Origin: Bacteroidota bacterium
GTDB taxonomy: Bacteria; Bacteroidota; Bacteroidia; Bacteroidales; UBA4417
Reading direction: 5' to 3'
DNA: 64,000 nucleotides
Assembly (NCBI GenBank): GCA_013376995.1
Contig: JACAAZ010000021.1
Coordinates: forward strand, 9,952 to 73,951
Below, in pieces: positions 1-57,500 of the stretch (its first letter is position 1; each line of letters opens with the position of its first letter). The translations under genes and the position numbers were made by a program. The notes under the pieces were generated by a model. It was not told where the DNA came from. It saw only the letters and a program-made list of their open reading frames with translations, and searched no databases.

Positions 1-427
1 TGAAGACAAGGATACAGCTTTACGATCTATTAAAGAGGCAGTGCTGGCTTTTTACAAGGATGAACACCCGGACGTACTTGCCAAAGAAGGAAAGCGCATA
101 AATAAAGCAATTACTACCATCCAGGGCGAATATCAACTCAATGCATTTCCTTTTATGCGCGCTGATGCATCACGTTATCTTAACCATATTGGCCATATTG
201 AATCCGATGGTTGTTTCCGCTGTCACTCCGACAGGCACAAAACTGCTAAAGGCGAAACGATTTCACGAAATTGTGATCTCTGCCATTCAATTATTGCGCA
301 GGGCAAGACTGGAAATGTCACCTATGGTACAGCTAATAAATCCCTCGAATTCGTCCATCCAACAGAGATCAGGGGTAAATGGAAAACAGCCTTCTGCTCT
401 GAGTGCCATAAGGAACTCTATAATTAA
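1..427 (+). CDS. Multiheme cytochrome c, C-terminal part (5' partial)
   Basis: Frame open from base 2; three CxxCH motifs (CFRCH, CDLCH, CSECH). Confidence 0.8.
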   Translation, partial: EDKDTALRSIKEAVLAFYKDEHPDVLAKEGKRINKAITTIQGEYQLNAFPFMRADASRYLNHIGHIESDGCFRCHSDRHKTAKGETISRNCDLCHSIIAQGKTGNVTYGTANKSLEFVHPTEIRGKWKTAFCSECHKELYN

Positions 428-37840: not shown

Positions 37841-37916
<76 letters not shown>

Positions 37917-38065: not shown

Positions 38066-39220
38066 ATGAACAAAACCCACATCAAATTTCAATTGCGCAT
38101 GGATAGGTCAAATGTCGATAGGCTTTACCCAATCTACTTGTATGCAAATGTCAACGGCAAGGTGAAATATTTCACCACAAATCATGCTGTTGCCGAGAAA
38201 GCCTGGAACCCCAAAAAACAGGAGGTAAGTGGATCTTACCCAAACGCTCAAACTATCAATAATGACATTGCCCGTTATAGAAGCTGGGCAGAAAAAATCC
38301 GGATCGATGCAGATCAGGATGGAGCCAATATAAACCTATTCGAATTTGAGAAGATATTTCGGGGAGGAGCTAAGGATCTCTCAGATGTTTTCGAGTTTAT
38401 TAAGAATGACCTTCAGGAATTTAAAAACACATATGCTAAGGATACGCTTAAAATGTATCAAAGCCAATCTAAAAAGTTGAAAGGCTTTAGAGCAACACTT
38501 TCATTTACTGAAATCACACCTTTTTTCTGGAAGCTTTACGACAGCTACCTGATCAAGCTTGGGAACAATGCCAACACAAGGTGGAAAGCGTTTAGGACAA
38601 TCAAGACCTATATCAATAAAGCCATTGAAGCTGGAATCCTGAAAACTGATCCACTCAGGGGGGTGAAGGTAAGGAAACCCGAAGGGAATCGACAGTTCCT
38701 AACCCAGGATGAATTGAAAAGCCTGGAAATCCTTTACAAAGGATTCTTAACCAAAGACCTTAAAACCGTACTAACTTATTTTCTCTTTTCCTGTTATACA
38801 GGACTGCGATATGAAGACGTCAGGACCTTGAAATATAGTAATGTCTTTATAGAACCTGGGAATTCTTACCTGCAATTCACACAGCATAAGACGAAACAAG
38901 CGGAAAACATGCCACTTGGATCAAAGGCTATAAGCCTTATTCCCAAGAATGGGTTGCAAAACCAGCCTCTTTTTAAGGTTTATACAAATCAGGTTACAAA
39001 CCGGCATTTAAAAAGCCTGATGACTTTGGCAAAGATCAACAAAGACATATCATTCCACTGTGCAAGACACACTTTTGCAACAATCGGGTTGGAATTAAGC
39101 GGGGATATTGCGACCGTCAGCAAGCTTCTTGGACATAGAAAAATCCAGACTACACAGATTTATGCTAAGGTACTGGATAAATCGAAGAGAGGAGTGATCG
39201 ATTTGATGGATGCAATCTAA
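38066..39220 (+). CDS. Tyrosine site-specific integrase (Bacteroidota Arm/SAM-like type)
   Basis: FSCYTGLRYED (R), HKT (K), HCARHTFAT (HxxR), LLGH, TTQIYAK (Y). Confidence 0.95.
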   Translation: MNKTHIKFQLRMDRSNVDRLYPIYLYANVNGKVKYFTTNHAVAEKAWNPKKQEVSGSYPNAQTINNDIARYRSWAEKIRIDADQDGANINLFEFEKIFRGGAKDLSDVFEFIKNDLQEFKNTYAKDTLKMYQSQSKKLKGFRATLSFTEITPFFWKLYDSYLIKLGNNANTRWKAFRTIKTYINKAIEAGILKTDPLRGVKVRKPEGNRQFLTQDELKSLEILYKGFLTKDLKTVLTYFLFSCYTGLRYEDVRTLKYSNVFIEPGNSYLQFTQHKTKQAENMPLGSKAISLIPKNGLQNQPLFKVYTNQVTNRHLKSLMTLAKINKDISFHCARHTFATIGLELSGDIATVSKLLGHRKIQTTQIYAKVLDKSKRGVIDLMDAI

Positions 39221-39811: not shown

Positions 39812-40936
39812 ATGAAAAAGCAGATTAATCTACTCTCAATCCTATTTATGCTTATTACATTTAATTTGCATGCCGCTATCTTAACAGTAAGTAATAACAC
39901 TAGCAATCCAGGGCAATACTCCAGCCTTCAGACAGCCATAAACACGGCATCAGCTAACGATACCATTTTAGTAGCAGGCTCATCAACTTCATATGGAGAT
40001 ATCTCGATTGGTAAAACGTTAATCTTATTCGGAGCTGGTTACCATAATCAATATGGCAATAATACAACTATTGGGAATCTAACTTTATATAGAACTAATT
40101 TGTATATTAGTGCAAGTGGTTCAAAAATTGTTGGGTTCATTGCCAGCCAAATTTTTGCTAATGGAAATTTTTCTGGTAGTGTTGATACTACTGCCACTAT
40201 TAATAATATTGTTATTGAAAGATGCCAAATAAGCTTAATTACATTCGGAGGAACTTCTATTCAAAAATCTTCATTCAATAATGATACTATCCGTAATTGT
40301 ATCATCTCATCAGGAATTAATACAGGTGAATACTGTCAATATAATGGTAACTGCACTTATCTTACTTCTGTTTTAAAATTTCGAAATATTTATGTGCATA
40401 ATAATATTTTCAATGGTGCTAGTATATCATCTGATCATGCAACATTCCCCTCTGTTGTTAGCGGATTTTATGTGAGAAACAACGTCTTTATTAACAGGCT
40501 TTCAAATTGTTTTGGAACGGCCTTTCCATCGATTGTGATTGAAAATAACATTTTCTATGCTGCTTCTCCACAAGGAGGAGCTACCTGCTCCCTGACAAAA
40601 AACATTACATTCATGTGCCTGGATAATAATATCCCAGGCTCTGGCAATTTGGGAAGTGGAAACAAAATCAACCAGAACCCTCTTTTTGTCAACTATCCTC
40701 TTGCTGGAGCGGTTGCTTTCAGCTATAACCATGATTTTCATCTTCTGGCAGGCTCACCCGGCAAAAATGCAGGTACAGATGGCACGGATATAGGAATTTA
40801 TGGAGGATGGTCACCATTTGATGTAGGTGCTAACCCATACATCCCTCAAATGATAGAATTAACTCTTCCCAGCGGAAGTTCAGTGCCTGCTGGCGGAACT
40901 TTAAACGTGCATTTTAAGGCCAGGAAACAGAATTAA
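39812..40936 (+). CDS. Secreted right-handed beta-helix protein (partner A1)
   Basis: Signal peptide; SLQTAINTASANDTILV cap; Asn-ladder repeats (HNNIF, RNNVF, ENNIF); DFHL..GSP...AGTDGTDIGIYGG tail. Confidence 0.75.
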   Translation: MKKQINLLSILFMLITFNLHAAILTVSNNTSNPGQYSSLQTAINTASANDTILVAGSSTSYGDISIGKTLILFGAGYHNQYGNNTTIGNLTLYRTNLYISASGSKIVGFIASQIFANGNFSGSVDTTATINNIVIERCQISLITFGGTSIQKSSFNNDTIRNCIISSGINTGEYCQYNGNCTYLTSVLKFRNIYVHNNIFNGASISSDHATFPSVVSGFYVRNNVFINRLSNCFGTAFPSIVIENNIFYAASPQGGATCSLTKNITFMCLDNNIPGSGNLGSGNKINQNPLFVNYPLAGAVAFSYNHDFHLLAGSPGKNAGTDGTDIGIYGGWSPFDVGANPYIPQMIELTLPSGSSVPAGGTLNVHFKARKQN

Positions 40937-40945
40937 TTACTGGCC

Positions 40946-43900
40946 ATGAAATTGCCTGTTTTTTGGATAATTTTCCTGATACAGATAGTAACCGTTAGTC
41001 TCCAGGCGCAAAGCCTGATACAGGCGGAATACTTCCTGGATGCAGACCCGGGTCCTGGTTACGGTATACCCGTAAGTTTGGTTAGTTCTGATTCATTAGA
41101 TATAAACTTTGCCTACAATCTGGGAAACCTCTCAAAAGGCTGGCATACACTATCGCTTCGCACAAAAGACCAAATTGGCCGTTGGAGCAATGTTAAGAGT
41201 AATACCTTTTATGTGTATGATTGTACCTCGCATATCCTCTCCTCCTCTGCGAGCAGGATTATCAAGGCCGAGTACTTCTTTGATACTGATCCTGGTTTAG
41301 GAAAAGGAGTAAATATTCCAATTATTCCTGGGGAGCAAACAGATGTGAACAGGTTCTTTGAATTGAATAATCTTAGCGTTGGCAACCATACAGTAAATCT
41401 AAGAGTTCAGGATGAATTGAACAGATGGAGTATATGTAAAAGTATAGCATTCACCATTAATCCATCAACTTGTGCATTTCCAAAGGTCAATTTCTCCAAC
41501 GATACGGTTACCTATGGAACTCCAATAACTTTCACCAATCAATCTTCTAATACCTTACCTGGATCAAAATATTACTGGGACTTTAATAATGATGGTATCA
41601 CAGATGATACTTTATCTAACACAAATCATACTTTCTCATTGCCGGGCGTATATCCGGTTAAGCTCAGAGTTGCTAATTCACTTTCTTGCAGCTCATCTAT
41701 TGTCAAGGATGTTGTAACCGGCCCATTGCCAAGGAAAGACATTATTATTATTGGGAATCAGGTGTTTTGTGAAGGAGATTCTGTAATACTCACATCCGAC
41801 AATAATCCTCCGGGATATAATTTCCGCTGGAATACAGGAGATACTACACAAGCCATTACAGTAAAATCTTCAGGCAGATACTATACCTGGATTACTAATA
41901 GCTATGGAATGCTAACAAAGTCCTTGGTGGTTGATGTTGTCGTTCATCCTAAAGTGACCACGTTAATTGAAGCTGATAATCCTACAGGCGGGGCCTCTAA
42001 TGGTAGAATTGCTATCATTGCGACAGGTGGTAGTGGGAATTACAATTATGGATGGTCAAATGGTGCAACCTCACCAGTAATTAATAATCTATTTCCAGGG
42101 TCATATTCAGTTATTGTGAATGATGGATATTGTCCAGTCTCACTAAGTGCTGACCTTACCAATATCCCAGTTTTAAGTGGCAATCTTATAAAGGCTGAAT
42201 ACTTTTTTGATACTGATCCAGGTGTAGGCAAAGGAGTTTCCTTACTGCTAAGAGCTAATGATTCTATTGAATTCCCAGCTTCTTTAGGTGTAAACGGTTT
42301 ATCAATTGGGTTCCATAAATTGAATGTAAGGACTTGCAATACTTCAGGCAACTGGAGTCTAAGTCTAAGCAAAGATTTCTACATTTTTAATGAAAGCCCC
42401 CAGGTTGTGGTGCCGCCACAAATTCAGCCGGGAATAATATCTTCTGAATACTTTATTGGCAACGATCCGGGAGTTGGTCATGGTATCTCTATGGTGTTGA
42501 ATGCTGGAGATAGTCTTTCTTTTAATTCAGGGATTCCTATAGTAAACGTACCATACGGACTAAATACTATTTCAATAAGAACAAAGGATGCCTTAGGCAA
42601 ATGGAGCCTTAATATGGGTACTTCATTCTTTGTTTATGATAGTGTTCCCAAAACACTTGTACAAAAAACTAGTAAAGCTATTCAGAGAGCTGAATACTTT
42701 TTTGATTCTGATCCGGGTGTTGGGAATGGCACTGCTATCTCCTTTAACACAAGCGACTCCGTGACTATTGAACGCTTTTTAAGGGTCTCAGGATTAACAG
42801 ATGGGAATCATACTGTTTATGTTAGAGTAATAGATGAAGCTAGCAAATGGAGTCTTTGGTTAAGAAAGGATTTTACTGTTCAGCATGTGAATTGTACCTG
42901 CCCTGTAGTTGAGTTCACTGCTGACACGGCAAGGGCAGTCGGACTTGCTACCCATTTTACTAATCTAAGTACAGGTGCTTCAACTGAAGCCACTTATGAA
43001 TGGGATGTGAACAATGACCATATTGTAGATTATACTACACAAAATATTTCTCATGTTTACAGTCAGGCAGGGATATATCAAGCCAAGCTTACTGTACGCA
43101 ATTCTGCTTCATGTTATGCATCTTTTCTTAAGGAAGTTGTTGTTAGCCCAATTATAGACACTTCACTTATAATAAATGGCAATCAAACCTTTTGTGAGGG
43201 TGATTCTGTAATCCTCACAGCACAAACAGGATATTCCTATATCTGGAGTAATGGATCAACAGCTCGATCTATTACCATTAAAAATGCTGGTATTTATTCA
43301 GTCAGACTAACCAATGTTTATGGTGTGCAAGCTCATTCAAGAATGGTGGAAGTGGTTGTAAATCCAGTTCCCATCGTAAGTCTTAGTACTATCGATGCTA
43401 CGAATGGGAATGCAAATGGCACAGCTGTCTGTACTGTTAATGGAAACTCTGACCAATACACCTTCTCTTGGTCATGTGGGGGAGATCTGCCTATTAGGAA
43501 CAATCTGGCTGAAGGAGAATACCAGTTAACTGTAAGCAATGGGTTGTGTCCTGTTAATCAGGAGTTTCATATATCAAATCATTCTCTATCTGAAGGAGAT
43601 ATTGCAGGTGCAGAGTACTTTTTCGATACTGATCCAGGAGCCGGGAAAGGAATTGAATTAAACATTGCTGGGGGTGATTCCATTCGATTCGAAACTTATA
43701 TACCCATGAATAATTTGCCGGTAGGACTTCATATTCTTTATATTAGAGTCCGGGATACCCATAATTTATGGGGGGAATATCTGAGTGAGCCCTTTTTTAT
43801 TTATCCAAAGTCAGAAGACAGCACTCAAAATTCTGATGTCAATCAGCCTCAGATTATCAGTGCTGAATATTATTTTGACTTAGATCCGGGACCTGGTAAA

Positions 43901-46900
43901 GGCCATCCGATTATGTTGAATAAAGCAGATGAAATAACTGAGGATTTTGCTGCAGATATAGACGGATTATCAGTCGGTAATCATAGTATAGGCTTGAGAG
44001 TTATGGACAGTATAGGTAAATCGAGCCTGCAATTGACAGAGTTCTTTTTTGTTTATGATTCAGTCCGGCAAAACATTACAGTTGATCAAACAAAAATTGT
44101 AGCTCTTGAATACTTTTATGATCTCGATCCTGGAGCAGGTAAAGGTGTAAACATCCCTTTTACTCCGACATCAAACCTGGTTGAGAAAGAATTGTATTTC
44201 CCCGTAACTGGCTTAGCGTATGGGGAGCACTCAATTTATGTCAGGGCCAAGGACGAAGCCGGGGCATGGAGTGTATATAATTCTGAATTATTCAATATTG
44301 ATAGTGTGAATTGCGCCTGCCCCTTACCATCGTTTCTTGCAGACACAGTTAATCCCGGCGCTGCAACAACCTTTGTAAACAGTTCCGGTAATACAAGTGG
44401 TTCAACAGCTTATGAATGGGACATCAATAATGATGGGACAATTGAGAGTACATCTAGGAATCTATCCTTTGTTTTCCCCCGTAGTGGTGTATATGATGTC
44501 AAGCTTCGAGTGATTAATAACAGCATTTGCCAGGCTTCTGTTATACAGCAAGTAATAGTTGGGCCAGTACCCGATAGGTCAATATCTATAACAGGCAATA
44601 CTATTTTTTGTGAAGGTGATTCGGTTATTGTTACGGCCTCTCCAGGTTATAATTACCATTGGTGGCCAAACGGTGAAACTACCCGGTCAATAACAGTCAA
44701 GCAAACTGGATTGTATTATGCCTGGATCACTTCTGGAGCAGGGATTGAGGTAAAATCAGAAACTGTTAGTACGATTATGCATGAAAAGATAATTGTTCAC
44801 CTTACAGTCTCAAATGCAAGCGGTGGAATTAATAATGGGAATGCCTTTGTTGAAGTGAGCGGAGGAAATGAATTATATTCCTATTCATGGTCATCAGGTT
44901 CAAATACGAGCTACGCCAATGCTCTTGCACCTGGGAGATATTCAGTTGATGTCACTGATGGAAACTGCCCCGTAACTGAAAATTTTGTTATTGAGAATGA
45001 ACCTTTCCATAATGGTGAGATCATAGCTGCAGAAGCATTTTTCAATTCAGATCCGGGAATCGGAAACGGCATCTCAATCCCAATTTCTTCTGGCGATACG
45101 GTTAATATGCTCACAGGGCTATCTGTAGCAGGGTTATCAAATGGGATTAATTTCTTATATGTGCGAGTACAAGATACCTATCACCAATGGTCTTTATATT
45201 CTCAGCAAATATTCTATGTCTACGCGGAAGATACAATTGTAAATCAAAAGACTATTATTCAGCCACCTTTAAGTGTGATTGAGTATTTTGTTTCATCATC
45301 AGATCAAAACAATGGAGATCCCGGGGTTATGAATGGAGTTAGGATTGACTTCCCTGTTGCAGATAGTCTTATTGGCTCGTTCAATTATAGTGCTGACAAC
45401 ATTTCTCCAGGCTTTTATACTATTAATCTTAGACCAGGTGATGTTGAAGATAAATGGGGGATTTCAAAGACTTCTGATTTCTACGTATATGACACAACTC
45501 ATCAAAACCTCCTTAAAGAACAGCCGATAATTCTTGCAGCTGAATATTTCTTTGATTCTGATCCGGGACTTGAAATGGGAAACCGGATTGAGATTTCATC
45601 AGGCAATCAAGTTGAATGGACAGGGAGAATTAGCATTGGAGCTCTCAGTTTGGGATCTCATAAAATTAACATTAGAACGAAAGATCTACACAATCAATGG
45701 AGTATCACTAAAAGTGCGGAGTTTACAATTTATGACTGTGTTCAACCAACAGCGAATTTCAGCTTTTTGCAAACCTGTCTTGAAACACCAATTGTATTTA
45801 ATGACATTTCAACGCATGTAGCTGAAAATGCAACTTATCAATGGGATATAGATGATGATGGAACAGTAGACAACACAACACATGGGAGCATTACTCATCA
45901 ATTTTCATTACCTGGCAACCATGATGTCAAGCTAAAAATTACTCATAATGTTGCTTGTATTGATAGTATAACTAAAACAGTAGTGTTCCCTGTTGTCCAC
46001 TTACCTAATGACACAACGCTCTATACAGACCAATCATTAGTCTTAGATGCAGGTCCGGGATATTCCTACCTCTGGAATACAGGTGCTACCACTCAAACGA
46101 TCACAGTGGATGGTGCAACAGTTGGTATTGGTTTGCATAATTATTCGGTCGTAGTTACCAATGAGTTATCATGTGTAGCCAATGATGAAATTAATGTAAC
46201 CGTAATCCTTCCTCCCAGGGACCTTGTGATTGCCAGTGCATCAGCAATTCCTGATACCATAGCTGTTGCCGGTGACAGCATAAGTGTTATGAGTTCAATC
46301 CAGAATATTGGCAGTGTTTCAGCTATTGCAAGTGTTGTAAACTATTACTTGTCGCAGGATACAGTTCTTAATTCTTCTGATCAATACCTTGGATATGCAA
46401 TTGTGCCTGCGCTTCCTCCAGGCTTTGCTCAGGATGTTACCAGCAGAGTTTCAATTCCAGCGGGCAGTAGCGGGGGAAAATTGTATATTCTTATTAAAGC
46501 AGATGGAACTGAAATAGTTGTTGAAAGTAACGAGAACAATAATACAAAGGCTTTCCCCATATACTATGCTCAGGTTCTGCAAAATCTGCTTTCAGGTAAA
46601 GTTTTCCTCGAAGGACTGTTTAATCCACTTACACATACAATGAATAAAGCCCGCGATGAGAATGGTGAGCATTGGCCGGGAAATGTAGCTGACCAGATCA
46701 GTGTTGAACTTCACTCAGACATATTCCCCTATTCGACTGTTTATGAGCAATCGGGCATTGATTTGATGGTTGATGGCGCACTCTCTTGCCTAATTCCGGG
46801 TACAGTTTCGGGAAGTTATTATGTGGTAATCCGCCATAGAAACAGCATCGAGACATGGAGTTCTTACCCTGTTACATTTGGATCAAGCACAATACAGTAT

Positions 46901-47158
46901 GATTTCACAACTGGAATTGCACAAGCCTTCGGAAATAATATGAAAGGAATTGGCGGTCAATTCGTTCTATTTGGAGGAGATGCAACGCAAGATGGTGTTG
47001 TGGACGGCTCGGATATGGCAGTAATTGACAATGCAGCAACTGGAATATTAATAGGTTATTTTCCTGAAGATGTTAATGGTGATGGTGTTGTTGATGGTTC
47101 TGATATGGCATTGATAGAGAATAACTCAACGAATCTGGTTCAGGTGAGAAAACCCTAA
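40946..47158 (+). CDS. 2070 aa secreted repeat protein: 11 EYFFDxDPG repeats, 4 PKD, SprB-like, CARDB, C-terminal dockerin-like module
   Basis: Signal peptide; repeats counted in translation; WDxNNDG PKD motifs; ESNENNN CARDB; two DxxxDGxVDGSD Ca-loops. Confidence 0.8.
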   Translation: MKLPVFWIIFLIQIVTVSLQAQSLIQAEYFLDADPGPGYGIPVSLVSSDSLDINFAYNLGNLSKGWHTLSLRTKDQIGRWSNVKSNTFYVYDCTSHILSSSASRIIKAEYFFDTDPGLGKGVNIPIIPGEQTDVNRFFELNNLSVGNHTVNLRVQDELNRWSICKSIAFTINPSTCAFPKVNFSNDTVTYGTPITFTNQSSNTLPGSKYYWDFNNDGITDDTLSNTNHTFSLPGVYPVKLRVANSLSCSSSIVKDVVTGPLPRKDIIIIGNQVFCEGDSVILTSDNNPPGYNFRWNTGDTTQAITVKSSGRYYTWITNSYGMLTKSLVVDVVVHPKVTTLIEADNPTGGASNGRIAIIATGGSGNYNYGWSNGATSPVINNLFPGSYSVIVNDGYCPVSLSADLTNIPVLSGNLIKAEYFFDTDPGVGKGVSLLLRANDSIEFPASLGVNGLSIGFHKLNVRTCNTSGNWSLSLSKDFYIFNESPQVVVPPQIQPGIISSEYFIGNDPGVGHGISMVLNAGDSLSFNSGIPIVNVPYGLNTISIRTKDALGKWSLNMGTSFFVYDSVPKTLVQKTSKAIQRAEYFFDSDPGVGNGTAISFNTSDSVTIERFLRVSGLTDGNHTVYVRVIDEASKWSLWLRKDFTVQHVNCTCPVVEFTADTARAVGLATHFTNLSTGASTEATYEWDVNNDHIVDYTTQNISHVYSQAGIYQAKLTVRNSASCYASFLKEVVVSPIIDTSLIINGNQTFCEGDSVILTAQTGYSYIWSNGSTARSITIKNAGIYSVRLTNVYGVQAHSRMVEVVVNPVPIVSLSTIDATNGNANGTAVCTVNGNSDQYTFSWSCGGDLPIRNNLAEGEYQLTVSNGLCPVNQEFHISNHSLSEGDIAGAEYFFDTDPGAGKGIELNIAGGDSIRFETYIPMNNLPVGLHILYIRVRDTHNLWGEYLSEPFFIYPKSEDSTQNSDVNQPQIISAEYYFDLDPGPGKGHPIMLNKADEITEDFAADIDGLSVGNHSIGLRVMDSIGKSSLQLTEFFFVYDSVRQNITVDQTKIVALEYFYDLDPGAGKGVNIPFTPTSNLVEKELYFPVTGLAYGEHSIYVRAKDEAGAWSVYNSELFNIDSVNCACPLPSFLADTVNPGAATTFVNSSGNTSGSTAYEWDINNDGTIESTSRNLSFVFPRSGVYDVKLRVINNSICQASVIQQVIVGPVPDRSISITGNTIFCEGDSVIVTASPGYNYHWWPNGETTRSITVKQTGLYYAWITSGAGIEVKSETVSTIMHEKIIVHLTVSNASGGINNGNAFVEVSGGNELYSYSWSSGSNTSYANALAPGRYSVDVTDGNCPVTENFVIENEPFHNGEIIAAEAFFNSDPGIGNGISIPISSGDTVNMLTGLSVAGLSNGINFLYVRVQDTYHQWSLYSQQIFYVYAEDTIVNQKTIIQPPLSVIEYFVSSSDQNNGDPGVMNGVRIDFPVADSLIGSFNYSADNISPGFYTINLRPGDVEDKWGISKTSDFYVYDTTHQNLLKEQPIILAAEYFFDSDPGLEMGNRIEISSGNQVEWTGRISIGALSLGSHKINIRTKDLHNQWSITKSAEFTIYDCVQPTANFSFLQTCLETPIVFNDISTHVAENATYQWDIDDDGTVDNTTHGSITHQFSLPGNHDVKLKITHNVACIDSITKTVVFPVVHLPNDTTLYTDQSLVLDAGPGYSYLWNTGATTQTITVDGATVGIGLHNYSVVVTNELSCVANDEINVTVILPPRDLVIASASAIPDTIAVAGDSISVMSSIQNIGSVSAIASVVNYYLSQDTVLNSSDQYLGYAIVPALPPGFAQDVTSRVSIPAGSSGGKLYILIKADGTEIVVESNENNNTKAFPIYYAQVLQNLLSGKVFLEGLFNPLTHTMNKARDENGEHWPGNVADQISVELHSDIFPYSTVYEQSGIDLMVDGALSCLIPGTVSGSYYVVIRHRNSIETWSSYPVTFGSSTIQYDFTTGIAQAFGNNMKGIGGQFVLFGGDATQDGVVDGSDMAVIDNAATGILIGYFPEDVNGDGVVDGSDMALIENNSTNLVQVRKP

Positions 47159-47323
47159 ACTGGTAGACTGTTTTATTCTTTTATAGTATGTGCTCCAATG
47201 GATAATTCCAAGGGGGGGGGTAATCAAATTGATGCATGCAATTTGTAGATTTGATGTAAAGGAAACGGAATATCTAGTTTGATTGATTAAATCAGCCGAT
47301 AAATTAGTGGATTGCTGCTTTGG

Positions 47324-50158
47324 TCATGGCTTCTTCACTTGAATCAAAGACGTAGAATTATTATCAACGATTGACATATCAGAGGCATCCACAACCCCAT
47401 CACCGTTAGCGTCTGTATTTAAGTATCCGCGTAGAATTCCTGTAGATGCATTGTCTATCAGTGCCATATCTGAGCCATCCACAACCCCATCCTGATTTAC
47501 ATTACCACCATAGATACAGTATTTACCACTTATAAGTTTGAGGTTGTTACCATAGGCTTGACTCAAGGCTTCTGAAAAACTATAATTGATGATACTTCCA
47601 CTAAACGATAAAGGAGAAGCTGACCATGTTTCAATACTATTCCTATGTTTAATAACTAAATAATAGGAGGATGTCAATGTGCTAGGAATACTTACTTCGC
47701 ATGAACCAGACAAAGTAACATTTAGATTGCTCAAGGATTGGATTAGAGGATAAGGGAACACATTTTGCCTGATTTCAAGAGAAATTTGATCTGCTACTTC
47801 ACCAACAAAATGATTTCCAAATTCATCTTGAGCATGATTCATGAGTCCTGTTGTAGGGTTATACAATCCTTCAAGTAAAAGAGTCACATTCAATGGCTTA
47901 GTAGTAAACGCTGCTGTGCTCACTAAGCTCCATTTACCACTATTATCTCTGGATCGAACATAAAGTAAGTGATTTCCTGAAGTTAAGTTATTGTAAGGGA
48001 AAGAAAACAGAATTGTAGAATTTGGAGAAGATGGTAAAACAGGAATATGGACACCTGATCCAAAACCAGGATCTGAGTCAATGTAGTATTCTATTTGATT
48101 AATATTTGGTTGGGAGATTGCATTGAACTTATAAATCGGCGTATTCGATAATAAACTCCATCTTCCATTTGAATCTTTCGCTCTGACAAATAAAGTGTGT
48201 ATTCCATTTGTAAGTCCTGTGAGTCCGATGCTAAAAGTTTTCACTTCATTTTGAGAGGAATTTAGACTAATGACTGTACCATGTTCAAACCCCGGATCCG
48301 AATCGAAAAAGTACTCTACTTTACTCAAAGTAACTAAAGGATTGTCATTCAATTTATAAATTGGAGTAGATTGAACTACACTCCATTTCCCGTAATTATC
48401 CTTAACTCTGATATAAAGAGTATGAATACCTGATGACAGAGAATTTAATGGAATATTATAAGATAAGGATAAATATTGATTCGCTGAAATTTGAATTTCA
48501 TGTCCCCTGCCAAAGCCTGGGTCGTTATCGAAAAAATACTCAAGCCTAGCGAGATTAGGGTCACTTGTCAAATATCGATAAAATGGTATTTTTTGAGTTT
48601 GGCCCCATATTCCACTAATATTTCTTGCTCTGACGTATAAGCTGTGAATCCCGGTCATTAAATCCATCATAGGCAAATTAAGGTCAAAGGTCAAAATTGA
48701 ATCTGGTTCACTTTCGATTACTGTCCCATTCCCTATACCTGGATCGGAATCGATAAAATATTCCATACTTTTAACATAATTCGGATTATCAACACAATAG
48801 GCGTTTATGCATAGATCAAAGTTTTCATTTGTGCCAGATCCTATCTGTGTCCATATATTTCCATCCGGACTTGTCCAACATTTTCCGGATTCAATAACTG
48901 GACTGGCATAATTGTCTATTGCCTGTTCGCAGGGTAAAGGGAAAATAGTATAAGGTGTTGTATACTTTATTTTGATAAAGAAATTTTGACCTCTGTTAAT
49001 AGTTGACTCAAACGGCAAATCAAATGTATAGAATCCGGGGTTTTCACAAACGAGATTATACATTGATACAATTGGATTAGATAGGGTTGTACCATCAAAA
49101 TCATGGAAAACCTCAATATCAATTGTTGAGTTTTCACTTATTACATACGTGGATATTTTTGATAATTGGATTGACCTTAAAGTTGTAAATTTTACGAGGC
49201 CACATGCAACGTTAGTATTATACCCACGGTAAGTTGTCGCTCCTAAATCATCATAACCAAGTATTTTCGCATTGCTAGTATAAGAAATTCTCGTGGGGAA
49301 ATATGCAGCACCATCTGTTAGTATCCTATTGTCAAGGTAGGATACATAAAAGTATCCGGCCTCACCAAAATTTTCCCAACTATTCTTTACTATCCAAGCA
49401 CCATTTCCGGCAGGGGTAATTTTTGAGTTATCCCACCCTACAATGATAACAGCATGATTTGGGGCCTTAATTCCATTATACCAATAACTATAATTGGAGG
49501 CATTATAGGAGCCATCCTCCCAGCGCATGGAAGTATATAACCCCCCATAATCCATGATAGCCTTTTTAATAATATTAATACCGCTATTTGATCTCCATTT
49601 GATATATCTCACATCAGAGACAAAGGCTAAGGGAGGTACGTTTGAAATATAGTAATTTCCGGAAGGATTATAAGGATCACTAGTTGAATCGATTGGACCT
49701 GCCATTCTTGCAAGATAAGCAATTGACTTGTTCAGGTTTCCCCCATTACAAGGTGAGCCTAAAAATTTGTTCCCATGAATCAAATTATTCTCAGATAGAT
49801 TATAGGTCCCATAGCCCGCAACTTTCCACTCTGATTCAAGGGCACCCATGGTCGCAAATGCCCAGCAACTTCCGCATGAACCCTGATGCTTTACTGGAGT
49901 AACGTTGTTTGTATTCCTTAAGTCAAAGCTAGATGGGAATGGTCCTGTAATATCAGGTGAATTGCTAAATGCTATTGAATAGGGTGGAGGGATATTACCC
50001 AATAAATATCCAGTTCCGGTGATAAATGACCAAAACCCATTTGAGAGATCATTAATGTAACTCAGGTAATTGCTACTATTGGGTGCTTGGATAGTCTGTG
50101 GGATGGCATAATCGATTATCTGAATTAAAAATATCAGTGACAGAATGATTCTTTTCAT
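47324..50158 (-). CDS. Secreted papain-family (C1A) cysteine peptidase with lectin-like domain, 4 EYFFDxDPG repeats and dockerin-like C-terminus
   Basis: QGSCGSCWAF, NHAVIIVGW, VKNSW catalytic motifs; ATG at 50158, 2 bp after upstream stop. Confidence 0.88.
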   Translation of the reverse strand: MKRIILSLIFLIQIIDYAIPQTIQAPNSSNYLSYINDLSNGFWSFITGTGYLLGNIPPPYSIAFSNSPDITGPFPSSFDLRNTNNVTPVKHQGSCGSCWAFATMGALESEWKVAGYGTYNLSENNLIHGNKFLGSPCNGGNLNKSIAYLARMAGPIDSTSDPYNPSGNYYISNVPPLAFVSDVRYIKWRSNSGINIIKKAIMDYGGLYTSMRWEDGSYNASNYSYWYNGIKAPNHAVIIVGWDNSKITPAGNGAWIVKNSWENFGEAGYFYVSYLDNRILTDGAAYFPTRISYTSNAKILGYDDLGATTYRGYNTNVACGLVKFTTLRSIQLSKISTYVISENSTIDIEVFHDFDGTTLSNPIVSMYNLVCENPGFYTFDLPFESTINRGQNFFIKIKYTTPYTIFPLPCEQAIDNYASPVIESGKCWTSPDGNIWTQIGSGTNENFDLCINAYCVDNPNYVKSMEYFIDSDPGIGNGTVIESEPDSILTFDLNLPMMDLMTGIHSLYVRARNISGIWGQTQKIPFYRYLTSDPNLARLEYFFDNDPGFGRGHEIQISANQYLSLSYNIPLNSLSSGIHTLYIRVKDNYGKWSVVQSTPIYKLNDNPLVTLSKVEYFFDSDPGFEHGTVISLNSSQNEVKTFSIGLTGLTNGIHTLFVRAKDSNGRWSLLSNTPIYKFNAISQPNINQIEYYIDSDPGFGSGVHIPVLPSSPNSTILFSFPYNNLTSGNHLLYVRSRDNSGKWSLVSTAAFTTKPLNVTLLLEGLYNPTTGLMNHAQDEFGNHFVGEVADQISLEIRQNVFPYPLIQSLSNLNVTLSGSCEVSIPSTLTSSYYLVIKHRNSIETWSASPLSFSGSIINYSFSEALSQAYGNNLKLISGKYCIYGGNVNQDGVVDGSDMALIDNASTGILRGYLNTDANGDGVVDASDMSIVDNNSTSLIQVKKP

Positions 50159-50160
50159 GG

Positions 50161-51165
50161 TCAATGGGTCTTGGCTTTAATGGTAACATTGATGCCATTC
50201 GTAGATGAGCCAGATGCTGGCATATTCAAATAATAGATAGCTGGAATCTCAGGTAAACCAGATAGTACATAAGGTGTCACCCCGCCAAACATCCCGCAAT
50301 CTGAGCCATCGTTGCCCGCTCCAATGGCTGGTGATCCTGTTTTTAATCTCCACTGTCCATCTGTAGAATTCCCGGTTGCACCCATAAAGACATCGGTCAT
50401 GCTTACATTTTGTTGATTACCGTTAACCAGAGGGAACTGAGTATGGTTGCATATATTATTGAAAAATGTATTATCGGTTGGAACAAGAGTATTATTGGTG
50501 CCAGTAGTGAGCAAATTGTTCATTATCAAAAAATTGTGAACATTAAGACTATATGCACAATCAAAAACATTGTTGATGATGGTTCCTGAAAAATTGGTTG
50601 CTAGATTTATTGCATTGTTATTATAAGAACCACTAAATCTTGTATAATTATTACTAATAATAATGTTGTTAACCAGTGAAGTACCTGTATTATTTTCAAT
50701 CCCCCCATAAATATAGTTCTGAGCAATCATAATGTTTTCATAGGAAGTTGTACAATTAAAATATATCGATTTGGTATAATTTCTTTTGATAGTGATGTTG
50801 CTCTCTCCGATCGTAATATAACCAGTCACCTCCAATCCAGATATAATTGTCCCAGAACAACCTGTATTAAATACTACGTTGCCAAATTTTGCAGTCGCTA
50901 AATTTACCTGTGTCTCTGGATTCTCACTTAGGAAGTAACCTGGACCAATTATCACCAGTGGTTTAGTAATGGTTATGTTCCCATAAGAAACCGTGGAACC
51001 TTCAAAATAGAGTGAATCATTTGGTGTCGCTGCACTTTGGGCAGCAGTGAAGTTGGTAAAGTTGGCACTGATTCCGGGATTATTGTTAACTCTCCAAATG
51101 GTAGCAGTTGATTGGGAATAACATAATCCAACGATGATGATTGAGATGATAATTCTTTTATACAT
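50161..51165 (-). CDS. Secreted right-handed beta-helix protein (partner A2)
   Basis: Signal peptide; FTAAQSAATPNDSLYF cap; Asn ladders; WRLKTGSPAIGAGNDGSDCGMFGG tail; paralog of 39812 gene. Confidence 0.75.
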   Translation of the reverse strand: MYKRIIISIIIVGLCYSQSTATIWRVNNNPGISANFTNFTAAQSAATPNDSLYFEGSTVSYGNITITKPLVIIGPGYFLSENPETQVNLATAKFGNVVFNTGCSGTIISGLEVTGYITIGESNITIKRNYTKSIYFNCTTSYENIMIAQNYIYGGIENNTGTSLVNNIIISNNYTRFSGSYNNNAINLATNFSGTIINNVFDCAYSLNVHNFLIMNNLLTTGTNNTLVPTDNTFFNNICNHTQFPLVNGNQQNVSMTDVFMGATGNSTDGQWRLKTGSPAIGAGNDGSDCGMFGGVTPYVLSGLPEIPAIYYLNMPASGSSTNGINVTIKAKTH

Positions 51166-51510: not shown

Positions 51511-54500
51511 TCAATTATTATCATCTTTCATACAGCGAACACTCATATATTCAGAGCGATAACCATAATCATATGCAATAAAGTCATCCGAATAAGAGGA
51601 GAGTTCCCACATCCAACTTCGATCGGAGAAAGTACTGGTTGAGGCCCAGAAACTAGTATAACTACCCATTGTGTTTGGCAATGCTGAAAAGCCACTGGCA
51701 TTAGTAGCCCCTATATTAGGTAGGACCCATGTTGCACTTCCAACTTCTTTCATGCTTCCTCCGGCAAGGGGTTGGCCTCCAAGATAGTTTGAAAGTACTG
51801 TCCAATCATCTTGTGAAGGGATGTGCCAACCAGCAGGACAAATACCCTGAGATCCTGAAACAGTACTATACTGCATTGCTTCATCCCATTGATATAATCC
51901 ACCAGATATTTCACAATTATAATCCAAGTTATCTTCACAATATTTTTCGAGGATTCCATTATTTGTTTGATTCAGATCATAGCGAATTGAAACCCCTATA
52001 TTCAGGTTCTCTCTTAACCAACATTGGTCACCAATTTGGACTGTTTTATAACTTTTCCCTTCATAAATGATTGAATCTATTCCGGGACATGGAAAGCCAA
52101 AAGTAGCAGTCGAAAAATATCGTTCGCTTCCATACACAATACCGGCACCATTGATAGCATATGCCCGAACAAAATAGATAGTATCGGCTTGTAAATTTGT
52201 TATAGTACACTCAAAAAAACCACTTCCAACACCACTACTGATGTGAGAATCAGACGTTGTCGGGTTGTGACTAAAACTCCAGCAAACCCCACGTTCAGTA
52301 GCCTTCGTTCCACCTCGGGGAATAACTTCTCCACCAGTTTTTGCTGAGTGAGATGTAATATTTCTAATAGGTGATGTTGTAATCCCTGGAAATACTAGAC
52401 TATCATCTCTTAAACATCTTACACTCATTTTAATGTAAGGGTAAACCAGGGATTTTCCACAACCCATATTCACTTGAGCCTCTTCTAAATAACTACTCAA
52501 AGCTAATGTAGAAACAATATGAGGGGGGGGCCAGTATATACCACATAATGTTGAGGAAAACCATGATCCGTAATCACCTTTGCCTTCAGCGTTTGGATTA
52601 ATAGGTAATGCTGTAAATCCAGTTTCATTCGTAGCATCTGTATTCGGATAAAGCCAATGTGAATTACCGGCTTCCTTCATTTTGCTACCTGCAACAAAGC
52701 CAAGTAGATTCTCTAGATAGTAAAAGTCACTAAGCGAAGGAATATGCCATCCATCTGGACAAATACCTTGATCGCTTTGATAAGTTGAGTAATTCATCAT
52801 TTCATCCCATTGATATATCCCCCCAAAAACTGTGCAGTTAGAGTCCAGATCGTTCCAACAAAACTTTTCAATCAAATTATTATTTGTAGAGCTTGAATCA
52901 TTATCAATACGATTCCCAACATTCAAATTCTCTTTCAACCAACATTGATTCCCAATTTTGACTGTGTTGTATACCTGACCAGAATAGTATAATGAACTGA
53001 TTCCAGGACATGGCGTACCCATAGAAGGGGTGCTAAAGGTAAAAACGTTACCATACGCGGTATCACTGGAATTGATTGCATATGCTCTTACAAAATATGT
53101 TGTTGCACCATTCAATGAATTAATAATACTTGTATAATTCCCAGGTCCATTCCCATCAGTGGTATGCTGTGAATTAATAGTGGGATTTGTGGTTGTATTC
53201 CAACAGACTCCTCGTTTGATTATTGGGGAACAACCCTCGAATATAATATTCCCACCTGATTGTGCAGAACTGGATGTAATATTAGTTATCGGTGAGGTTA
53301 TAACAAATAATGAATAGGGTAGCTTGGACTTTACTATAGATGTTGAGTTGTTATCTACTAATGCCATGTCACTTCCATCAACAATTCCATCTCCATTTGC
53401 ATCATCAGAAACATAGCCTTTGGTGAGCGATGTTGACGAATTATCGACCGCCGCCATATCTGTTCCATCGACAATACCATCTTGATTTATATCACCTCCA
53501 TATATTGCAAATGTATTGTCATTCATTTGATTCAGGTTATTTCCATATGCTTTTGTTGGAAGATCGAAAGTATAGTTGATGACACCATCTGTAAATGAAA
53601 CAGGAAAAGCTGTAGTAGTTTCAATATGGTTTCGCTGTTTGATGGTAATGTAGAATGAACCTGTTAGTATGAGGGGTATTGCTACGGTTGCATTCCCATC
53701 CATACCTAAAACAACATTGGAGGTTGAGAATAAAACGTTATTATAATTCGTTGCACTATGCAATTCAACGGTTAGTTGGTCAGCAACACCCTCGCCAAAA
53801 TGGGGACCGAGGTTATCATTGGCTTGTCGCATTTGGTGGTTTCCAGTATATAAACCTTCAAGGAACAATGTCAGGTTGAGTGATTTGCAGGGATTAACTG
53901 CAATTGAGGAAATTGCACTGTTTGAACATATGCCATTATTGTATTCGTAAGAAAGAGTAAATACTCCGGGGCCAGATATTAATGGATCGAAATGATCACC
54001 TGTAACTCCAGGGCCGGTGAATGTACCACCATGAGGAGATCCAACAAGTAAAACAGCATTGTTTAGGGCACAAACAGGTTCTAGTGGAGCGAACGAAACA
54101 GTTGGTAGATCAGAAACGATAACAAATGTACTAGTCATTGAAGAGCATCCAACATCATCGGTAACTTCCAGATAATATGTACCGCTATCTTGAATTAAGA
54201 CATCATTTATGCTAGGATTCTGTGCATCTGACGTAAAGCCATTTGGTCCTGACCAAATATAGGATGTCATATCAGCCGGAGTTCCAATTAATTGAAGTGT
54301 ATTATGAAGACATATAGGGCTATTGCTTGAAGCTGATGGAGTAATATTTGGAAGAACTGTTACTGTTAGCGGAATGCAGTCCGAAAATCCACAGTCATCT
54401 TCCCACCTGGCAAAATAGGTTGTTGTTATTTCAGGTGAAGGAATAGTAAGATGATTCCCCGATCCAATTGAAATGCCTTCGCAGCTACCAGAAAACCAAA

Positions 54501-57500
54501 GCATATTGTTTCCACTTCCACCGTTAGCAGTCAGTTCAATTGACCCATTATCATCTGCACAGATACTATTACGATTACTGGATGCTGATTCTGGGGTGAC
54601 AGGCAAAGCTTTCACAGTAAGATCCATCATTGAACTCGCCACGCCACATGGACCTATACCATCAGGATCGTTTGCTGAAAGAGTAAGTGTAACAGTACCA
54701 CTGTTTATATCCGGAGTGTATTCCGTTGATAATGAACCGGGATCAGAGAAGCTGCCAGTCGGGGCACTCCAGTAAGTTGTTGTGTAGAAACCTCCGATGG
54801 TTCCATTCAAGTGAATAGTTTCTCCTTCACAAGCAGTTTGTGGCAAACCTGCAAAAGGTGTTGCTTGAGGGCTAAAAGTAATATCAATATCATCTGCTGA
54901 AATACAGGAACCTGAGAAAATGTTTAGCGATAGAGTAACAGTCCCATTCAAAATATCCTCTTCACTTGGGACATATTCTGCATTTAGTATATTGGCATTA
55001 TCAAATGTTCCAGTTCCAACACTTGTCCAGAGGGCAATTGGTGAACCTGAATATGGAGAATAAGAACCACTCATAATAACATTTGGAGAACCGGAACATA
55101 CAGTTTGATCAGGACCGGCATACGCAACTTTTAGAGTGGACACTACAATCGATAGATTCCGTGCTGTACTTGATCCACAACTATTGCTGGCTGTAACACT
55201 AAGTGTTCCATTAGTTGCGTTGGCCAAGAAATCCATTGTTATGTTGCTAGATCCATTTCCATAAATGACACCCCCGGTCCCGCTATAATTCCAATTGTAT
55301 GTCACACCCTCAATATTATTGACAGAATATACGACTCCTAATACTTGGGCACATATAAACTTGTTTGATGCAGGTGAAATTACAGAAGGCAAAACTGGAA
55401 TGGATTTTACATCGACATAGTATATAACAGGCTGTTGGGCCGAACATCCATTGGCATCACTATAGTTCACACTGACTGATTGAACACCTGAAGAAGTCCA
55501 GGTAATAGTGGCAGTATTACTATATCCTGTTCCACCGGCAGTAATTGTTCCACCAACTACGTTCCAGACATAACTAGTCATACCGACTTGGGTAGTATAG
55601 ACGTTTCCTGTTGAATTAAGACAGCCTGTCGATGGACCTGAAATTGTAGGTGTCGGAAGTGGGTTGACCGGTACATATAATACAAAAGGAGCTGCCCCAG
55701 GACAACCATCCGGGTTGGTGAAGTTAACGCGGACTGATTGATTACCTGATAAAGTCCAAGAAATAATAGCAGTTGCATCAGATCCAGATCCACCAGATGT
55801 AATTGAACCGCCTTCCGCACTCCAGGTATATCCTGACATGCTGGCTTGGGTAGTGTAAACATTACCCGTTGAGTTAAGACAAGCAGGCGAAGGCCCAGAG
55901 AGCGTTGGAGAAGTTAAAGGATAAATATTAACAGAGGAAGTTGTAACCTGTGAAGCTTCACCACAACTATTGCTCGCTGCTAAATAATAAATTCCGGCTC
56001 CAGCCATAGTTATATTTGGGATAGATGAATTTTCTGCAGTGGAAGTAAATCCGGCTGGTCCAACCCAGCTCCAACTGCTAGCTCCAGACGCACTGCCCGT
56101 CAAATACAATGTATCACCTTCACAAATTGGATTTGGAGACACAGAGGCTGTTAATGAATTAGGAATATTGTTTACCGTTAATAAACGACTTCTGAGTGGG
56201 GCGGTACCACAAAGATTTGATGGGGTGACACTTACAGTTCCACCTTCAGATCCTACAGTGACGTTCACAGAGCTCGTACCTTGTCCTGAAGTAATTGTCC
56301 ATTCTGTTGGAAATTCCCAGGAATATGTAGTTCCTAAAATATTGGTGACATTGTAGGATTGAGCAGAACCATAACAAGGAGATGACATACCTACAATATT
56401 GCTTGGTTGCGGAAGAGGTGAGACAACAGTGATATCTGTTGAATTATTTGTAGTGATAAGGCTATTACAATTTTGAGCACCAGTCCCGGTACCTGTTCCT
56501 GAAGCTAAATTTGTTATAGTAATGGTAGTAATACCCGGATTTGTTAAGTAAACTGTGTTGAATGACCCTATACCAGCATTAGTCACTGTCATCGATGCAG
56601 TTTGTCCAATAGCTGCATTTGGAGTACTCAAATTATATGTAACAGTGTATATGCCTACTGGAAGACCATCAGCAGTGCCTGAAAGATTTATTTGACTGTC
56701 GCTTCCTGCGCAGACTGAAGAATTTGCCGAGGTACTCATTATGTTATAATTAGGGCAATTCCAGCTAATTATTACAAGTCCATTTGCACCAGAACCTCCC
56801 CATGGAAGAAAAGGAATCCCCAGCATTGTGCTTGATCCGCCACCCCCTCCACCATAATCATTTCCATTTCCTCCAGGGCCTGTACCTTGATATCCTGATC
56901 CACCAGATCCTCCAAATTGTGGAGTTCCAAGACCGCCTGTTTGAATCAAAGCATTGCCACCAGCACCATTTGTACCAGCTCCACCACCGCCACCACCACT
57001 TGATTGGTAGCTTGTACCATATGCGCCATCACCACCTTTATAACTCATATTTCCAATACAATTGGAGATACTTCCACCTTCACCTCGAGTATTGGAATTA
57101 TACAATGCTCCAGCGCCACCAGCCGCTCTAACTGTGTTAATATTGAAGCTCGAATTTTCGCCCGATGTGTTTGCTGCTCCACCTGCACCAACAATTACAC
57201 TATAATTTATACCAGGAATAACAGAAACCGTTGAACTGGCATATGCGCCACCTCCACCTCCTCCACCATTTCTGCTGAGACTCGTGATTGATGAGCCACC
57301 TCCACCTCCGCCCCAGGCATGAACTGTAATACTTGTTACACCAGCAGGAACTGTAAAAGATTGACCGCTTCCTGTTGAAGTGAATGTCTGTGATTGTGTA
57401 AATGCCTGGCTACTTAGAATAATCATCAACAGAAATAAAAGGGCTCTGACTAGGTTCTTTGATGCTCTTCTGCATTTCAGTTTTGATGGAGTGTTCTGTT

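Follow-up and report, generated by a model that had tools for sequence, protein, structure and literature searches.

A widespread two-gene cassette of Bacteroidota couples a secreted beta-helix protein to a carrier of FN3-like repeats and may encode a surface complex

Introduction

Two described principles are among those closest to the locus reported here. Donor-strand complementation has a precedent among the Bacteroidota in Mfa4 (PMC4789730), and in hitchhiking through the twin-arginine translocation (Tat) machinery, for example by PaoABC, a subunit without a signal is carried by a signal-bearing partner through a translocon for folded proteins (PMC4273604). We analysed a stretch of 64,000 nucleotides (the window) from the Bacteroidota bacterium assembly GCA_013376995.1 (contig JACAAZ010000021.1, positions 9,952 to 73,951 of the forward strand), in which a gene for a secreted right-handed beta-helix protein (BH) is twice followed by a gene for a large secreted carrier with tandem repeats of the form EYFFDxDPG. 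A first reading of the letters alone (the original prediction) had proposed that each repeat is an Ig/FN3-like sandwich lacking strands A and B, that the tail of BH supplies them, and that BH hitchhikes in this way on a multivalent scaffold. As described below, each pair is a copy of a two-gene cassette, so far without a name, that is widespread in Bacteroidota.

No dedicated family covers either BH or the repeat. The original prediction knew of no description of such a system, and in the literature searched, parts of which were available as excerpts, we likewise found none of the repeat motif, of the pairing of BH with the repeat or of hitchhiking via type IX secretion (T9SS).

Results

Two copies of the gene pair lie in the window

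All four predicted open reading frames (ORFs) are present, and they form two convergent pairs, separated by 165 bp, that have diverged strongly (bh1 and bh2 are 29% identical). A search of the whole 5.05 Mb assembly returned two BH genes and two repeat proteins in total, all of them in the window. The features of the two pairs are as follows.

39812..40936, + strand: bh1, ORF for a 374 aa secreted right-handed beta-helix protein
bh1 residues about 1-21, + strand: signal peptide, judged by eye
40829..40933, + strand: bh1 residues 340-374, the C-terminal tail; conserved beta-hairpin of amphipathic character after the 'TDIGIYGG' helix end, from the family consensus and direct-coupling analysis (DCA)
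40946..47158, + strand: big1, ORF for a 2070 aa secreted protein
41009..41476, + strand: big1 repeats 1-2, directly after the signal peptide (motif scan and alignment)
42179..42898, + strand: big1 repeats 3-5 (motif scan and alignment)
43595..44314, + strand: big1 repeats 6-8 (motif scan and alignment)
45014..45748, + strand: big1 repeats 9-11 (motif scan and alignment)
46613..47155, + strand: big1 C-terminal module of ~181 aa, 'LEGLYNP...' followed by dockerin-like DxDGxVD loops
47324..50164, - strand: big2, ORF for a 946 aa secreted protein
47885..48781, - strand: big2 repeats 1-4, with a period of 74-75 aa and without linkers
47327..47869, - strand: big2 C-terminal module of ~181 aa (residues 766-946)
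50161..51165, - strand: bh2, ORF for a second beta-helix protein of 334 aa
50164..50265, - strand: bh2 C-terminal tail (residues 301-334), which aligns to the family tail

The gap between bh1 and big1 is 9 bp, as first read. The 2-bp gap given for the second pair holds with an ATG start of big2; with the first TTG start, two codons earlier, the genes overlap by 4 bp. Both small proteins do end in the tail that had been described for them, and it is conserved across the family.

The large proteins differ in their passengers. In big1 the signal peptide is followed immediately by the first repeat, as had been noted, and the 11 repeats form blocks (2+3+3+3) that are separated by PKD/SprB-like Ig modules and followed by CARDB and the 181 aa module; the Pfam matches are four PKD modules, CARDB and SprB. 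The order in big2 is Peptidase_C1 (77-276), Lectin_like (303-456), four repeats (462-760) and the 181 aa module (766-946). The repeat counts of 11 and 4, obtained by motif scan and alignment, agree with those first proposed. So does the protease said to arm one carrier: residues 77-276 of big2 match the papain-family cysteine peptidase profile Peptidase_C1 (PF00112) with an E value of 1.9e-34. The Cys of a 'CGSCW' motif and the His of a 'NHAV' motif are both readable in the translation, and we take them to be the catalytic sites of the papain family.

BH and repeat genes are coupled across Bacteroidota

A word-indexed library yielded 402 bh1 homologues of similar length, and a full HMMER scan gave a family of 2,430 representatives at 50% identity (E<=1e-30). 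The original prediction called for a check of gene adjacency across Bacteroidota, and the genes proved to be coupled almost without exception, at 102 of 107 loci in a first sample and 131 of 157 in a second. In the first sample, 95 loci have a repeat ORF on the same strand downstream of a single BH gene or an array of up to four (1-4), seven are fused, contig ends truncate two, and at three (L097, L102, L111) there is no partner. About 590 bp remain before the contig end at L111. L097 and L102 carry the only full-length BH homologues that have room downstream and no repeat partner there, and both lack the tail (2/2, a small sample).

The second sample comprised 157 further loci from metagenome and genome contigs and, judged from the record titles, spans Bacteroidales, Flavobacteriales, Cytophagales, Chitinophagaceae and Sphingobacteriales, with the cultured Flavobacterium taihuense NAS39 and Pontibacter sp. 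13R65 among them. Besides the 131 paired loci (including L270, which is unpaired only under a stricter gap rule), 18 were cut by contig ends and eight remained. Two of these eight were paired on inspection (L159, L242), three have a BH ORF truncated by the start of the contig and followed by repeats (L169, L185, L301) and three have no partner (L209, L268, L284). The distance from the BH stop codon to the partner start has a median of 12 bp (n=293) and is <=30 bp in 232 cases. BH and repeat are coupled more strictly than most known operon partners.

Co-occurrence was also counted in 401 sampled genomes of the class, of which 80 carry BH, 88 the repeat and 73 both; as relatedness makes genomes non-independent, we gave these counts no p-value weight. 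Of the 15 genomes that seemed to have the repeat only, 12 have a diverged or split BH of ~400-480 aa with a like tail upstream of the repeat protein. These 12 include one genome in which the BH-like gene is split in two (G212) and one with only a weak, partial BH match interrupted by a stop (G179). Elsewhere, G348 has a single internal repeat without a BH-like neighbour, the repeat protein of G055 starts at the contig edge, and a deeper profile found no BH in G069.

Three weaker BH matches (L288, L290 and L299; 27-40% identity, some partial) come from records labelled as Desulfobulbaceae, Ignavibacteriae and Desulfuromonadales metagenome-assembled genomes. A repeat-bearing ORF lies downstream in all three, which could be spread outside Bacteroidota or a binning error.

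Carriers bear the sorting domains, and natural fusions join the two proteins

The first repeat follows directly behind the signal peptide, <=70 residues from the start, in 91 of the 97 unfused partners; big2 is among the six exceptions. C-termini were compared in 148 distinct complete partners, after exclusion of the 77 of 240 partner ORFs that are cut by the locus end. Por_Secre_tail was found in 113, CHU_C in 20 and Dockerin_1 in five. None of 60 BH proteins has a sorting domain, so that the view of the small subunit as one with no visible T9SS C-terminal domain (CTD) extends to the family, while the partners are mostly T9SS cargo.

The carriers of the window end in the ~181 aa module, which is present in 40 ORFs of the genome, most of them large secreted proteins. 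Among the 58 full-length matches listed, 57 reach to within a few residues of the C-terminus. Apart from a weak Dockerin_1 hit (in big2), the module matches nothing in Pfam or NCBIfam. The module looks as if it takes the place of the T9SS CTD in big1 and big2, as a second sorting or anchoring domain beside type A CTDs; at least 150 ORFs of the same genome carry Por_Secre_tail. An internal copy of the module (residues ~1221-1400) occurs in a neighbouring 1997 aa protein (51511-57504, - strand), which has Gly_rich_2, three PKD_6, Ig_7 and two Fib_succ_major matches, no EYFFD repeat and no BH partner.

Natural fusions of tail and repeat, another check that had been suggested, exist in several forms. 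BH, tail, linker and repeat(s) are joined in one ORF in L053, L058, L059 and L082, which belong to one genus and have six repeats where complete. Further fusions are L072, L099 and L113, and BH is fused to a single repeat in P0150/P0266, P0151, P0203 and P0218, four of the best 150 representatives. The tail is retained in most fusions; in L072, L113 and P0151 the profile match stops short of the tail end. The stretch from the tail to the first repeat strand measures 20-34 residues in L072 and L113 and 3-9 in the other fusions.

The g59-type fusions end in a T9SS CTD (P0121: PF18962). With the CTD at the far end, BH can evidently be a permanent N-terminal part of exported cargo, which favours a co-displayed subunit over a released chaperone. 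A PapD-like role, in which BH is a periplasmic chaperone or export helper that caps the open face of the repeat until export and is then left behind, would suit the tight, translationally coupled operon, the signal peptide of BH and its lack of a sorting domain, and the open-faced look of the repeat in DCA. We nevertheless consider it improbable, since several fusion forms fix BH permanently at the N-terminus of exported cargo, which is hard to square with release, and since operons with 2-6 BH paralogues would be unexpected.

The repeat resembles an FN3 domain without strands A and B

The repeat has a conserved core of 70-76 aa with invariant E7, D13, P14, G15, G19, G44 and R51. Its period is 74-75 aa in big2, 81-87 aa in big1 and 69-92 aa, mostly 75-80, elsewhere (243 tandem neighbours). 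The unit of ~85 aa first proposed is accordingly too long, and the linkers between repeats come to about 0-12 aa rather than ~10-18.

Strand pairing was derived by mean-field DCA of 819 distinct repeats (effective number, Neff, 710). Strand b1 (3-12) runs antiparallel to b4 (46-56), with couplings E8-R52, D12-H47, 7-53, 5/6-54, 4-55 and 3-56. Strand b4 is also paired with b5 (59-72; couplings 50-65, 46-69, 48-67, 54-60 and 53-61), and b1 with b2 (20-29; couplings 8-20, 7-23 and 3-27/29). The resulting sheet order, b2-b1-b4-b5, is that of C'-C-F-G in FN3. The contacts of strand b3 (30-38) are limited to turns with b2 (26-34, 27-32, 28-31) and to the side chains of F53 and F11, on one sheet face; no long ladder partner was found for it in the DCA, as expected of an E strand that lacks B. 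Units as short as 69 aa imply that the repeat holds no A or B strand. Measured against the seven strands of an FN3/Ig-like fold, the analysis (DCA, no 3D model) thus recovers C'-C-F-G and an E-like strand and finds A and B absent within the unit, in line with the proposal that the repeat comprises strands C to G.

Profile searches gave partial matches. Summed scores for Y_Y_Y (PF07495) are 36.8 bits in big1 and 43.6 bits in big2 against a cut-off of 26.6, with each match confined to profile positions ~28-57 of 65. The best hit of a repeat profile in a PDB sequence search was to strands E-F-G of insulin receptor FnIII-3 (E 0.009; 1.6 with a deeper profile).

When tandem pairs were analysed, the top inter-repeat couplings all joined the same position in neighbouring repeats, which indicates repeat homogenisation rather than contacts. 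The first repeat and the later ones share essentially one consensus and hence show no docking signature specific to the first. The open face may be closed by loops, by neighbouring repeats or by BH, and the couplings are compatible with each.

The near-invariant 'EYFFDxDPGxGNG' head (repeat positions 8-20, at all loci) forms a loop packed on b5 by DCA (15-70, 17-63, 18-60) and adjoins an aromatic-rich face made up of F10, F46, Y50, Y63 and Y69. The loop looks like a candidate metal- or glycan-binding loop.

By co-variation, the BH tail forms a hairpin coupled to the first helix rungs

No Pfam or NCBIfam family matches bh1 or bh2. The curated beta-helix profile PF13229 matches one of 60 BH family members (E 5.7e-4) and neither of the two proteins of the window. 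An Atlas model of bh1 (pTM 0.83) has NosD/Beta_helix proteins as structural neighbours at TM 0.50-0.66, which we treat as a lead only, and matches of the BH profile in PDB are limited to generic beta-helix and leucine-rich repeat (LRR) chains. Stacked rungs are recovered by mean-field DCA of 495 sequences (Neff 446): a ladder at i,i+22 is apparent (137-160, 160-182, 182-205, 205-226 and others), and 71 of the 353 top couplings have a spacing of 19-27.

Across 60 sequences we found no catalytic signature and, beyond D50 of the cap motif, no invariant acidic or basic residues. This bears on the idea that the two proteins are functionally linked without binding, for instance because both act on the same external polymer with the aromatic face of the repeat serving as a carbohydrate-binding module. 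Beta-helix proteins are often polysaccharide-active, and the face of F10, F46, Y50, Y63 and Y69 with the conserved DxDPGxGNG loop would fit such a role. Set against this are the lack of conserved catalytic residues in BH and, arguing for physical assembly, the strict order and spacing of the genes, the location of the repeats at the N-terminus and the recurrence of fusions at a single fixed junction; we regard linkage without binding as improbable.

The C-terminal segment of BH returns along the helix (296-245, 300-204, 311-181, 313..316-158..161, 317-130, 322-106, 320-78/80). The tail that follows 'TDIGIYGG', conserved across both BH subfamilies, is a hairpin by its couplings (328-348, 326-347, 331-346). 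We equate 'TDIGIYGG' with the 'DIGAYE' motif in which beta-helix domains of this kind usually end at the C-terminus. Odd-numbered tail residues, which form the hydrophobic face, are coupled to the rungs that come first in the helix (323-72/22/52, 325-56/33, 329-51, 345-74, 353-67/32), the targets of the hairpin being core residues 22-83. Core residues 20-110, which make up 29% of the core columns, account for 15 of the 20 tail-core pairs that score best. It therefore appears that the hairpin is kept on the protein to which it belongs, against the N-terminal end of the helix, which speaks against a free donor tail and is one of the outcomes that the original prediction itself had named as adverse, with the proviso that these contacts may form between chains.

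The K-rich end of the tail had also raised the idea of a remnant T9SS CTD, which we rejected: BH-II tails end differently, and none of the 60 BH proteins matches a CTD profile.

A second BH subfamily (L139-L151, e.g. L139:3531-7334 and L146:2313-3593) has proteins of ~400-480 aa with the tail '...ARVYxVxAPRRVxxGxTINIKAxxFDR'. Its partners have repeats that read 'AEYFWDTDPGQGNGT...WGPVF', as many as three of its genes can stand in one array, and the two members scanned gave no Pfam family.

Co-variation of tail and repeat follows a deep subfamily split

Tails and the repeats of their cognate partners were subjected to inter-protein DCA for 289 BH genes. The leading coupling, between tail position 349 and repeat position 53, scored 1.74, compared with <=1.19 in nine other 36-residue BH segments and <=1.20 in 12 of 12 random re-pairings. 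The second, 343-68, joins a hydrophobic tail residue to a core-face residue of the repeat. A version with full BH sequences (Neff 251) was set aside as its scores, <=0.58, came partly from near-invariant columns and were treated as artefacts.

The states at 349-53 follow a deep split between subfamilies that we call W10 and F10 after residue 10 of the partner. Among nine independent contrasts at 349, placed on a BH tree built without the tail columns, the repeat trait went the same way in 2.5, the opposite way in 0.2 and showed no change in 6.3 (median p 0.5). The tail-repeat pairing originally envisaged is therefore not borne out by co-variation, which tracks one deep split and is not significant in independent contrasts. 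Of the 20 BH columns that best separate W10 from F10, 14 lie in the tail or in residues 21-81 and the other six right beside these regions; on the repeat the separating columns lie in b1, the DPG loop and b5 (10, 7, 17, 20, 15, 62, 16, 70, 50, 63), not in strand E. The split is a single evolutionary event, and judging from these columns it points to the hairpin and first rungs as the end of BH that changes with the partner.

Gene numbers bear on stoichiometry. Repeats equal or outnumber BH genes in 238 of 240 operons, and arrays of 2-6 BH paralogues occur. One BH gene precedes anything from 1 to 11 repeats (11 in 12 operons). The predicted loading of up to 11 BH subunits on one carrier (11:1) is accordingly unproven. 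At L144:4272-12001 (G231:C1), a giant ORF whose open frame spans 9780 aa carries 14 or more repeats from residue 37, with a single 430 aa, tail-bearing, BH-like gene upstream.

In the most specific form of docking, the BH hairpin would supply strands A and B and pair with strand E of an incomplete FN3 domain (C-C'-E-F-G), one BH per repeat and up to 11:1 and 4:1. Several observations fit. Strand b3 is left by the repeat DCA with turn contacts to b2 and core contacts to F53 and F11 alone; the 69 aa units are too short for further strands; in most fusions the tail stands 3-9 residues before b1, the length and order of an FN3 B-C connection; the two best couplings join the hydrophobic face of tail strand 2 (343, 349) to the core face of the repeat (68, 53); and repeats are at least as numerous as BH genes in the 238 operons. 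Others do not. The same hairpin face (323, 325, 329, 345) sits on the first rungs of BH itself, the tail-repeat couplings lose significance once relatedness is allowed for, and the subfamily-specific repeat columns lie in b1, the DPG loop and b5 instead of E. Moreover, in 12 operons one BH gene is set against 11 repeats, and in L144 against 14 or more, and the g59-type fusions have two tails to six repeats. We hold this form of docking to be unlikely. The same doubt attaches to the wider scheme built on it, in which five-strand half-sandwiches closed by BH hairpins would load up to 11 BH subunits per carrier and BH, lacking a CTD, would hitchhike via the type IX or a related pathway.

Genomic context

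Two features lie upstream of the gene pairs.

37841-37916, + strand: tRNA-Phe
38066-39220: tyrosine integrase with Phage_integrase, SAM-like and Arm-DNA-binding domains

The G+C content is 0.35-0.40 over 38-62 kb, compared with about 0.42-0.45 upstream. Given the tRNA, the integrase and the lower G+C content, the two cassettes may be carried on an island integrated at tRNA-Phe. A second copy of the tRNA-Phe 3' end, sought as an island boundary, was not found within the window.

Discussion

Gene coupling, gene order, the fusions and the distribution of sorting domains single out an assembly of two subunits at the surface as the likeliest of the explanations considered. From these comparisons of sequence we put at about even the chance that BH and the repeat carrier form a heteromeric complex at the surface, with BH riding on the carrier. 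The carrier consists of a signal peptide, 1 to 11 or more FN3-like modules of ~72 aa and five strands at the mature N-terminus, variable passengers (here PKD/CARDB in big1 and a papain-like protease with a lectin-like domain in big2) and a C-terminal sorting domain, which is a T9SS CTD in most relatives and apparently the 181 aa dockerin-like module here. BH is a right-handed beta-helix of non-enzymatic appearance with a signal peptide and no sorting signal. We infer that BH docks on the repeat module at the N-terminus of its own carrier, probably through the end of the helix where the conserved hairpin is held on the first rungs. Carried in this way, it would pass the outer membrane and be displayed at the carrier end farthest from the anchor.

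Several points weigh against such an assembly. Adjacency and fusion show functional linkage, which is not the same as a stable complex of separate chains, and the co-variation between tail and repeat is weak and not significant over the nine contrasts. DCA does not distinguish contacts within a chain from those between chains, and the couplings between tail and first rungs may be intermolecular. In big1 and big2 themselves, Pfam and NCBIfam searches found no type A T9SS CTD (Por_Secre_tail / TIGR04183-type). Finally, co-export of a subunit without a CTD through the T9SS is not described in the literature searched, which included the available portions of PMC9251779 and PMC10202324.

If BH and carrier do assemble, the cassette would be a common, unrecognised route to surface complexes in Bacteroidota, with a constant head of beta-helix and repeat on variable bodies (proteases, LRR, PKD, lectins), and the type IX pathway would be able to carry a subunit without a signal of its own. 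Should the tail complete the repeat, the two would make a compact natural split-domain docking pair of interest to protein engineering, and split-FN3 docking would represent a new principle of protein-protein docking together with the first piggy-back cargo of the T9SS.

Among known systems, cohesin-dockerin assemblies are similar in having a large secreted protein with tandem small beta-sandwich modules, a partner with a short conserved C-terminal element and the idea of multivalent loading. They differ in that the BH tail is a beta-hairpin and not a calcium-binding helical dockerin, that a single dedicated gene of the operon encodes the partner here, in place of many dispersed enzymes, and that the partner is a beta-helix without a catalytic signature. 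Pfam found no Cohesin in big1 or big2 and no Dockerin in bh1 or bh2; dockerin-like loops sit on the C-termini of big1 and big2 themselves.

Pili of the chaperone-usher and type V (FimA/Mfa) kinds share with the cassette a strand-lacking Ig-like module that could be completed by the strands of another chain. In contrast to pili, a single chain here has the incomplete modules in tandem, a folded beta-helix of 35 kDa would act as donor, and its hairpin appears by DCA to be held on its own protein. The Pfam scan of the four proteins gave no pilin, usher or lipoprotein-pilin family; the neighbourhood was not searched for them specifically.

The repeat is like FN3 and Y_Y_Y domains in the match of its C-terminal half to Y_Y_Y 28-57 and in its C'-C-F-G sheet by DCA. 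It differs in lacking an equivalent of A and B, in its unit of 69-76 aa and in the EYFFDxDPGxGNG head, which has no counterpart; among solved structures, the PDB sequence search gave no repeat match below E 0.009.

Like other type IX cargo, most partners have Por_Secre_tail or CHU_C at the C-terminus, whereas the carriers of the window end in the 181 aa module, and an obligatory companion without a CTD was not found in those parts of the T9SS literature that were searched. In the carriage of one subunit by another the cassette may be compared with Tat hitchhikers, although here the membrane is another and the machine is another, and BH would probably be exported together with its carrier.

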